Source of the DNA: a virus
Taxonomy: Duplodnaviria; Caudoviricetes
Length of the DNA: 64,000 nt
Reading direction: 5' to 3' (one strand)
IMG/VR virus record: IMGVR_UViG_2061766007_000586
Location: 192,001-256,000 of that record
How positions within the stretch are numbered: position 1 is the first letter of the stretch; the number at the start of each line of letters is the position of its first letter. Under the pieces are notes generated by a model. The model was not told the DNA's origin. It did no database searches and was given only the letters and a program-made list of their open reading frames with translations. Positions 36,227 through 36,359 of this stretch are shown in pieces. The translations under genes were made by a program, and so were the position numbers.

Positions 36227-36359
36227 GACCAAAGGTGTGTTTCTACACCAAAAGTTTTCAGGCATGGACTACCATGCTTACTCGATTCGCACAAATCTAC
36301 TCGAGTCATCCAACTACTCCTTAGCTGATGGCTACTTCTAAGCCAACAGTCCTTCAGTC
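36227..36359 (-). ncRNA. stand-alone mimic of the 23S rRNA L11-binding/GTPase-associated centre (H43-H44)
   Basis: GTTGGCTTAGAAGTAGCCATC...TAAGGA...GGTGTAGAAACACAC, closed by GACTGAAGG/CCTTTGGTC. Confidence 0.8.

Follow-up and report, generated by a model that had tools for sequence, protein, structure and literature searches.

The window analysed here, a 64-kb stretch of the 318,604-bp genome of a giant uncultured phage, contains a tRNA island in which a 133-nt non-coding element lies at 36227-36359 on the minus strand. The initial annotation had assigned exactly these coordinates to a small RNA resembling the GTPase-associated centre (GAC) of 23S rRNA, a domain of 58-60 nt that binds uL11 and thiostrepton, and the minus-strand sequence that it quoted is present there. 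The element is single-copy in the phage. It lies 5 nt from tRNA-Ser, as had been noted, the linker UUGUU (36364-36360) separating it from the end of tRNA-Ser(UGA) at 36365. The parts of the element and its neighbours are listed below, with E. coli 23S numbers for individual rRNA-like nucleotides.

37679-39193, minus strand: gene for a DUF2828/DUF7788 + vWA protein of 504 aa (phrog_850, 'RNA-binding protein', Ro60/TROVE-like), 1.3 kb upstream of the element, in the tRNA island
36365..36456, minus strand: tRNA-Ser(UGA) with encoded CCA (ARAGORN; Rfam tRNA 47.9 bits), immediately upstream of the element
36351..36359, minus strand: 5' strand of the closing helix P1, GACUGAAGG, corresponding to the top of H42 (E. 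coli 1047-1055) and pairing with 36227-36235; A1056 comes next
36325..36349, minus strand: H43 copy (1057-1081), with A1067 at 36339, U1072 at 36334 and the basal pair C1057-G1081
36320..36324, minus strand: junction mini-hairpin C-UAA-G (1082-1086), whose closing pair covaries in the family
36316..36319, minus strand: GAGU, in which G1087 pairs with C1102 (36237) and A1088 (36318) is followed by G and U
36253..36315, minus strand: variable insert arm of 63 nt, between GAGU and UUU
36237..36252, minus strand: UUU and H44 copy GGUGUAGAAACAC (1090-1102), with A1095 at 36244, U1092 at 36247 and A1099 at 36240
36227..36236, minus strand: A1103 and 3' strand of P1, CCUUUGGUC, which closes the helix with GACUGAAGG
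35628..36206, minus strand: Methyltransf_24 gene (Pfam), outside the element, with its Shine-Dalgarno (SD) sequence AAGGAG at 36214-36219 and its ATG at 36206

The tRNA-Ser(UGA) gene and the element are probably co-transcribed, and the element is probably a stand-alone non-coding RNA that is released from the tRNA-island transcript. A consensus scan called the H44 hairpin and the following UUUGGUCUUU (36234-36249, minus strand) terminator-like. This call coincides with the H44 hairpin plus the U-rich P1 strand and is probably an artefact of the fold; the structure could influence 3' end formation.

Several other features of the island stand out. An HNH/NUMOD3 homing-endonuclease-like ORF (36461-36934, minus strand) lies between tRNA-Glu and tRNA-Ser, and T5- and T4-type tRNA islands have a similarly placed ORF of this kind. 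Rfam tRNA matches at 31440-31551 and 39775-39906 (both minus strand; 112 and 132 nt; 47 and 42 bits) were not called by ARAGORN, which marks them as tRNA-shaped RNAs with long inserts. ARAGORN also reports a tRNA-Ser at 32500-32589 (minus strand) whose anticodon, ACU, has A at position 34, an unusual choice for AGY serine codons. Large ORFs of the window had no PHROG matches, and for ORF 48272-50014 tblastn found no match.

Comparison with 23S rRNA supports the view that the element is a self-closed, free-standing copy of the H42-H44 GAC. The E. coli GAC sequence on which the initial annotation relied is correct when checked against the E. coli 23S reference, and when the element is aligned to it, 28 of 34 positions are identical over E. 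coli 1055-1088 (about 82%). All but one of the six differences are offset by compensating changes (C1057-G1081, C1082-G1086, and U1072 with U1092-A1099). The order of helices is identical to that of the bacterial GAC (top of H42, H43 and H44; E. coli 1051-1108). H43 is nearly identical, including the A1067 loop, which reads UUAGAAGU in the window; the 1082-1086 U-turn mini-hairpin and the A1088 bulge are kept, as are the H44 loop G-U-A-N-N-A with A1095 and the tertiary triples of 1071 and 1072, the latter as a covarying U/U-A form.

The element nevertheless differs from its ribosomal counterpart in being free-standing, whereas the GAC of 23S is embedded in the rRNA. It has its own closing helix, in which GACUGAAGG and CCUUUGGUC form nine pairs (7 Watson-Crick and 2 G-U), in agreement with the 9-bp helix described originally, and the internal features of H42 are not copied. 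The two-hairpin insertion between the H43-like and H44-like parts, originally put at about 60 nt, measures 63 nt and follows A1088-G-U. This arm interrupts H44, which in 23S is continuous (GAGUGCGUAAUAGCUCAC type) with U1101; in the element, an A at 1101 pairs with a new U, G occupies 1090, and 1096/1097 are not conserved. The element is flanked by a tRNA and a protein-coding gene and is not part of a full-length LSU rRNA of the type described by Rfam RF02541. No other rRNA accompanies it, as had been claimed: the LSU model has no match in the whole phage, and the only Rfam hits in the window are tRNAs.

The fold is best explained as a four-armed version of the GAC, with a plain closing helix replacing H42, the H43 copy, the 1082-1086 mini-hairpin, the H44 copy, and the extra arm. 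The extra variable arm branches off at the foot of H44, directly following the A1088 bulge, where the G and U that come after A1088 oppose a conserved U and U. It begins with a 4-bp base helix, AGUU/AACU (36312-36315 with 36253-36256), and carries hairpin A (36280-36306), which includes an AGUA/GAA bulged-G-like module, and hairpin B (36262-36277), which has 6 bp and a UAGU loop. RNAfold gives the element -43.4 kcal/mol (z = -2.9 compared to shuffles) and recovers P1, H43 and both insert hairpins. We found no close relative of the window's insert in IMG/VR, but two near-identical relatives in metagenome contigs back both hairpins. In one of these, L558, hairpin A is closed by G-C instead of A-U and hairpin B by A-U instead of G-C, a G.U pair of P1 becomes A-U, and the sole change in H44 is at loop position 1096.

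The element had been described as if it were a one-off, but it is one of at least 157 distinct phage RNAs. A scan of IMG/VR with a 20-mer from H43 found 96 loci, only two of which are genuine 23S rRNA, and scans anchored on U1072 or on either form of H44 widened the collection to at least 157 members, nearly all on IMG/VR phage contigs, from which we define the family. The homologue search that the initial annotation had proposed thus turned up a family of phage RNAs, often near tRNAs, with a common architecture: a private closing helix; GG-NNN-G-UUGGCUUAGAAGCAGCCAUC-NN-UUAAAGAGU; a variable insert; (C)UUU-GGCGUAAUAGCACAC; and the closing helix again. The insert arm and the private closing helix are common to all members. 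The window matches the core GUNGGCUUAGAAGYAGCCAUC + N-UAA-N + GAGU exactly at 36316-36347, its AGUU/AACU base helix is followed by UUUGGUGUAGAAACACAC in line with the family H44 pattern after the arm (UUU-GGYGUANNARCACAC, with A1101), and its 9-bp P1 fits the private closing helix of the family, which spans about 9-10 bp and ends in G1055-C1104. A covariance model derived from 38 members with the window excluded (leave-one-out model R2) finds the element at 36226-36360 on the minus strand with 91.2 bits (E = 6.8e-22), over its full length (model positions 1-153). This is the only strong match in the window, the next-best having 13.5 bits, and the E. coli GAC scores 48 bits on the same model. 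The family probably comprises several hundred phage RNAs.

Its members share derived features that real rRNA lacks, namely A1101 with its new U, G1090, the GAGU...UUU frame, and the G.U and U.U appositions, so they are not repeated captures of host rRNA. Unannotated full-length members, scoring 56-86 bits, occur in the cultured phages Pseudomonas pf16 (between tRNA-Asn and tRNA-Pro), Aeromonas 4_4572, Cronobacter GAP32 and Acinetobacter ME3, and BLAST also indicates members in Pectobacterium CBB, Serratia BF, Erwinia pEa_SNUABM phages, Xanthomonas XacN1 and Ralstonia RSP15. Among 185,579 species genomes the pattern matched 114 times; only about 40 of these matches belong to the family, most of them on MAG contigs, and the rest arose by chance. 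A same-strand tRNA lies within 30 nt of 62 of the 157 members, and 104 of the 157 are within 2 kb of one. The family is phage-specific and tRNA-linked. Searches of Rfam 15, at gathering thresholds and at E-values up to 10, with the window and seven typical members returned only tRNAs and one sub-threshold LSU fragment. We found no description of the family in the searchable literature; as a viral and free-standing copy of a functional centre of rRNA, it appears to have no precedent. PhiMa05, a phage with a uL11 gene of its own, is unrelated.

The family's variable genomic context argues against a role as a cis-regulator. The end of the element lies 7 nt before the SD sequence of the Methyltransf_24 gene, and we found no convincing terminator between them, as would suit a cis-acting leader that controls translation of the methyltransferase through binding of a ribosomal protein. 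However, none of 52 loci with methyltransferase homologues carries the mimic, L558 has a tRNA in place of the gene, other members have tRNAs or a variety of genes as neighbours, and P1 does not overlap the SD sequence. We consider such a leader very unlikely, and the methyltransferase an incidental neighbour. The Ro60-like phrog_850 protein was also considered, as an obligate partner, and was rejected because homologues occur in only 16 of 49 records that carry the RNA.

Inserts range from 41 to 365 nt, with a median of 149 nt. The possibility that they are copies of other rRNA regions was rejected, as they have no rRNA match. A motif, CACCCCGUAA(C/A)UGGUAAGG, occurs in at least 16 of the 157 arms (L002, L011, L017, L038, L066, L075 and others) and has no match in E. 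coli rRNA. The sequence AGUACGGGAGGA lies in the long inserts of L023 and L297 (309 and 346 nt). In some members (L182, L111 and L228) a second hairpin is inserted inside H43, between A1077 and U1078, so the fold tolerates expansion at two sites.

The secondary structure of the family is supported by covariation. In a 30-sequence alignment of the core structure, 91.5% of cells are paired, compared to 69.9% in shuffles; the covariation score is 0.566, compared to 0.164 for shuffled alignments and at most 0.165 when pairing partners are slid; and 13 of 20 pairs show double-sided changes. Across the family all nine P1 pairs show compensatory double changes, with all four Watson-Crick pair types seen, and the sequence of P1 is conserved only in its two innermost pairs. 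Pairs 1057-1081 and 1058-1080 covary, the latter being U-A, G-C or A-U in roughly equal numbers. The closing pair of the mini-hairpin (1082-1086) varies among U-A, C-G and A-U; its counterpart in ribosomes is U1082-A1086 for E. coli and C-G for Haloarcula (PMC2952862). GAGU is nearly invariant, and the appositions at the foot of the arm are G.U in 142 and U.U in 141 of 148 members, among which the first four pairs of the insert arm (the base helix) also covary.

The strongest evidence that these RNAs adopt the three-dimensional fold of the GAC is a three-way covariation. The ribosomal triple joins C1072 to C1092 by pairing and to G1099 by a hydrogen bond (PMC2952862). In the window these positions read U1072, U1092 and A1099, a U/U-A state that differs from the usual bacterial C/C-G. 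Among the 157 members the triple is C/C-G in 113, U/U-A in 43 and mixed in one, and U/C-G is never seen. Samples anchored on H44, which are unbiased for H43, have C1072 in 104 of 104 members with C1092-G1099 and U1072 in 33 of 34 members with U1092-A1099, among the matches listed. In all, U1072 accompanies U1092-A1099 in 43 of the 44 members that have the latter. Members whose H44 was located by P1 complementarity alone obey the same rule at 1072 and have the same loop, G-U-A-N-N-A. The U state is found on at least 12 stem/junction haplotypes that are also found in C-state members, a spread that argues for repeated switches rather than one inherited change. The same exchange of C/C-G for U/U-A was reportedly found in comparative work on rRNA by Conn, Gutell and Draper in 1998.

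These results bear on whether the element could be a randomly captured, decaying fragment of host 23S rRNA, a reading that its similarity to the E. coli GAC over 34 nt might suggest and that the initial annotation had named as one that would count against its own. The shared derived features, the compensatory substitutions, the covarying triple and the covariance model score all contradict it; other rRNA is absent from the phage, and the triple is not in the usual bacterial state. With covariation extending across the whole family, this reading is effectively refuted, and we regard it as extremely improbable.

The pattern of conserved and relaxed nucleotides gives some indication of what the RNA may do. 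Determinants of the fold are kept in the family (U1060, G1071, A1088 and the H43 loop), and in the window U1060, A1088, the 1071 and 1072 triples and the 1082-1086 hairpin are all present or replaced by covarying equivalents. In the H44 loop, G1093, U1094, A1095 and A1098 are kept, including in six members located through P1 complementarity alone, although our search patterns themselves fixed most of these positions. A1095 is near-invariant and A1067 is present in 75-93% of members. Positions 1096/1097 and 1070 are conserved in rRNA, whereas in the family 1096/1097 vary freely (AU, AC, GC, GA, AA and others) and 1070 is G in about 15% of members, which places the phage RNA under a somewhat different constraint from that on the ribosomal site. 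A1070, which is conserved in rRNA (PMC6239185), contacts A1096 in the ribosomal GAC (PMC2952862). A1095 and A1067 are not needed for the GAC to fold (PMC6239185). Because these two bases are kept though neutral for the fold, while 1096/1097 and partly 1070 are relaxed, the sequences hint that the RNA is read by something besides the C-terminal domain of uL11.

We think, on balance, that the element works off the ribosome as an imitation of the GAC that binds host uL11. RNA released from the tRNA-island transcript would fold as a GAC and bind host uL11, whose C-terminal domain recognises exactly this domain of about 58 nt. The surface formed by the RNA and uL11 may in turn engage whatever normally reads the GAC site, and one possible effect would be a relaxed response through loss of uL11-dependent activation of RelA. 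Perturbed autoregulation of ribosomal proteins and absorption of rRNA-targeting defence factors, which the initial annotation had proposed next to a blunted stringent response, would likewise be putative effects. Work by Draper, Ramakrishnan and Wimberly reportedly established that the isolated 58-60-nt GAC folds unaided and is a ligand of uL11; since the phage RNA keeps every determinant of that fold, binding of uL11 is the most economical reading. Structures 1HC8 and 1MMS are cited in PMC6239185. In this phage we found no uL11, uL10, bL12, GTP_EFTU (EF-Tu-type GTPase) or RelA_SpoT domains, and the RNA-binding domain of uL11 is absent from all 49 other carrier records (29 of them at least 90% complete), so the partner is likely to be a host protein. 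A sponge would need high expression, because uL11 is abundant and mostly ribosome-bound. The initial annotation had also proposed binding of uL10, for which we find no support, as the closing helix is conserved only in its innermost pairs and H42 proper is not copied.

The kept loop bases could also point to other roles. One is as a decoy or sponge for agents that attack the GAC (ADP-ribosyltransferase toxins, nucleases or thiopeptide-like inhibitors), which would spare the host ribosomes on which the phage depends. One role proposed for phage tRNA islands is to counter RNA-targeting defences, which would suit a decoy, as does the retention of A1095 and A1067 where the fold does not require them. 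A GAC-directed toxin does exist and keeps this reading alive: Tre23 ADP-ribosylates H44 at bases 1095-1098 and blocks EF-G (PMC8661411). However, 1096/1097 lie inside the Tre23 target window and vary freely, and no linked immunity-like gene was seen. We know of no anti-phage system that targets the GAC, and our literature searches found none. On this evidence a decoy seems unlikely.

Alternatively, the RNA alone or with uL11 might bind a translational GTPase, RelA or another reader of the GAC and so modulate translation or alarmone signalling. The loop bases that contact factors are the ones kept (A1095 nearly always and A1067 mostly), and a sarcin-ricin-like sequence, AGUACGGGAGGA, in two of 157 inserts would complete a factor-binding site. 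That sequence is rare, however, and absent from the window, where hairpin A has AGUA/GAA and a 7-nt loop, AUUUGUG, in place of the sarcin-ricin arrangement AGUA-C-GAGA-G-GA with a GAGA tetraloop. The inserts at large resemble no rRNA, and the isolated GAC binds factors only weakly, which makes a trap or regulator of this kind quite improbable.

We also regard as rather improbable the reading in which the variable arm carries the function and the GAC fold provides only a compact, nuclease-resistant platform for it. It would account for an arm that is hypervariable in length and sequence and for recurrent arm motifs such as CACCCCGUAAnUGGUAAGG (at least 16 members). Against this, exposed loop bases are under selection though they give no stability, the shortest arms are simple hairpins, and a platform needs no near-identity to rRNA across hundreds of phages.

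Beyond the binding of host uL11 that we favour, we tentatively suggest, as a possibility with a smaller chance of being right, that large phages use the RNA as a portable factor-docking replica, in which a uL11-loaded platform traps, activates or shields ribosome-directed proteins. These may include translational GTPases, RelA, and immune or competitor toxins that target the GAC.

The nearest known things to the family are the ribosomal GAC itself and the ribosomal protein leaders that mimic rRNA sites. The element has no Rfam match to such leaders, including the L10 (rplJ) leader RF00557, even at E-values up to 10. Those leaders sit upstream of ribosomal protein operons, whereas the gene downstream of the element encodes a methyltransferase. 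L10 reads the H42 kink-turn region; the element, unlike the L10 leader, copies the uL11 site and not that region. Other RNAs of phage tRNA islands (tRNA-like, tmRNA-like and Y-RNA-like RNAs, GOLLD and ROOL) share its location among the tRNA genes of large phages and probably also its co-transcription and processing with tRNAs, but they are unrelated to it in sequence and structure, and their Rfam models do not match it. Among these structured RNAs, only the GAC mimic copies an rRNA functional centre. The logic proposed for it, in which an abundant RNA stands in for what a cellular protein naturally binds, is that of 6S RNA, which mimics an open promoter, and of CsrB/RsmZ, from which it differs in target and fold, and in that its activity is inferred.

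Viruses are partly defined by the absence of ribosomes. No viral mimic of a ribosome part of this kind would have preceded a conserved and widespread phage RNA that copies a 23S rRNA functional centre, including a tertiary base triple that covaries. The family is also a natural experiment on the GAC fold, offering hundreds of variants, a helix insertion that the fold tolerates, and the U/U-A triple. Bench tests are already possible, as cultured phages of Pseudomonas, Cronobacter, Acinetobacter and Aeromonas contain the RNA in unannotated form, and the RNA offers a direct route to studying the manipulation by large phages of uL11-dependent factor recruitment, the stringent response and thiopeptide sensitivity. 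If the portable replica proves true, it would represent a new layer of virus-host conflict that uses imitation ribosome parts.
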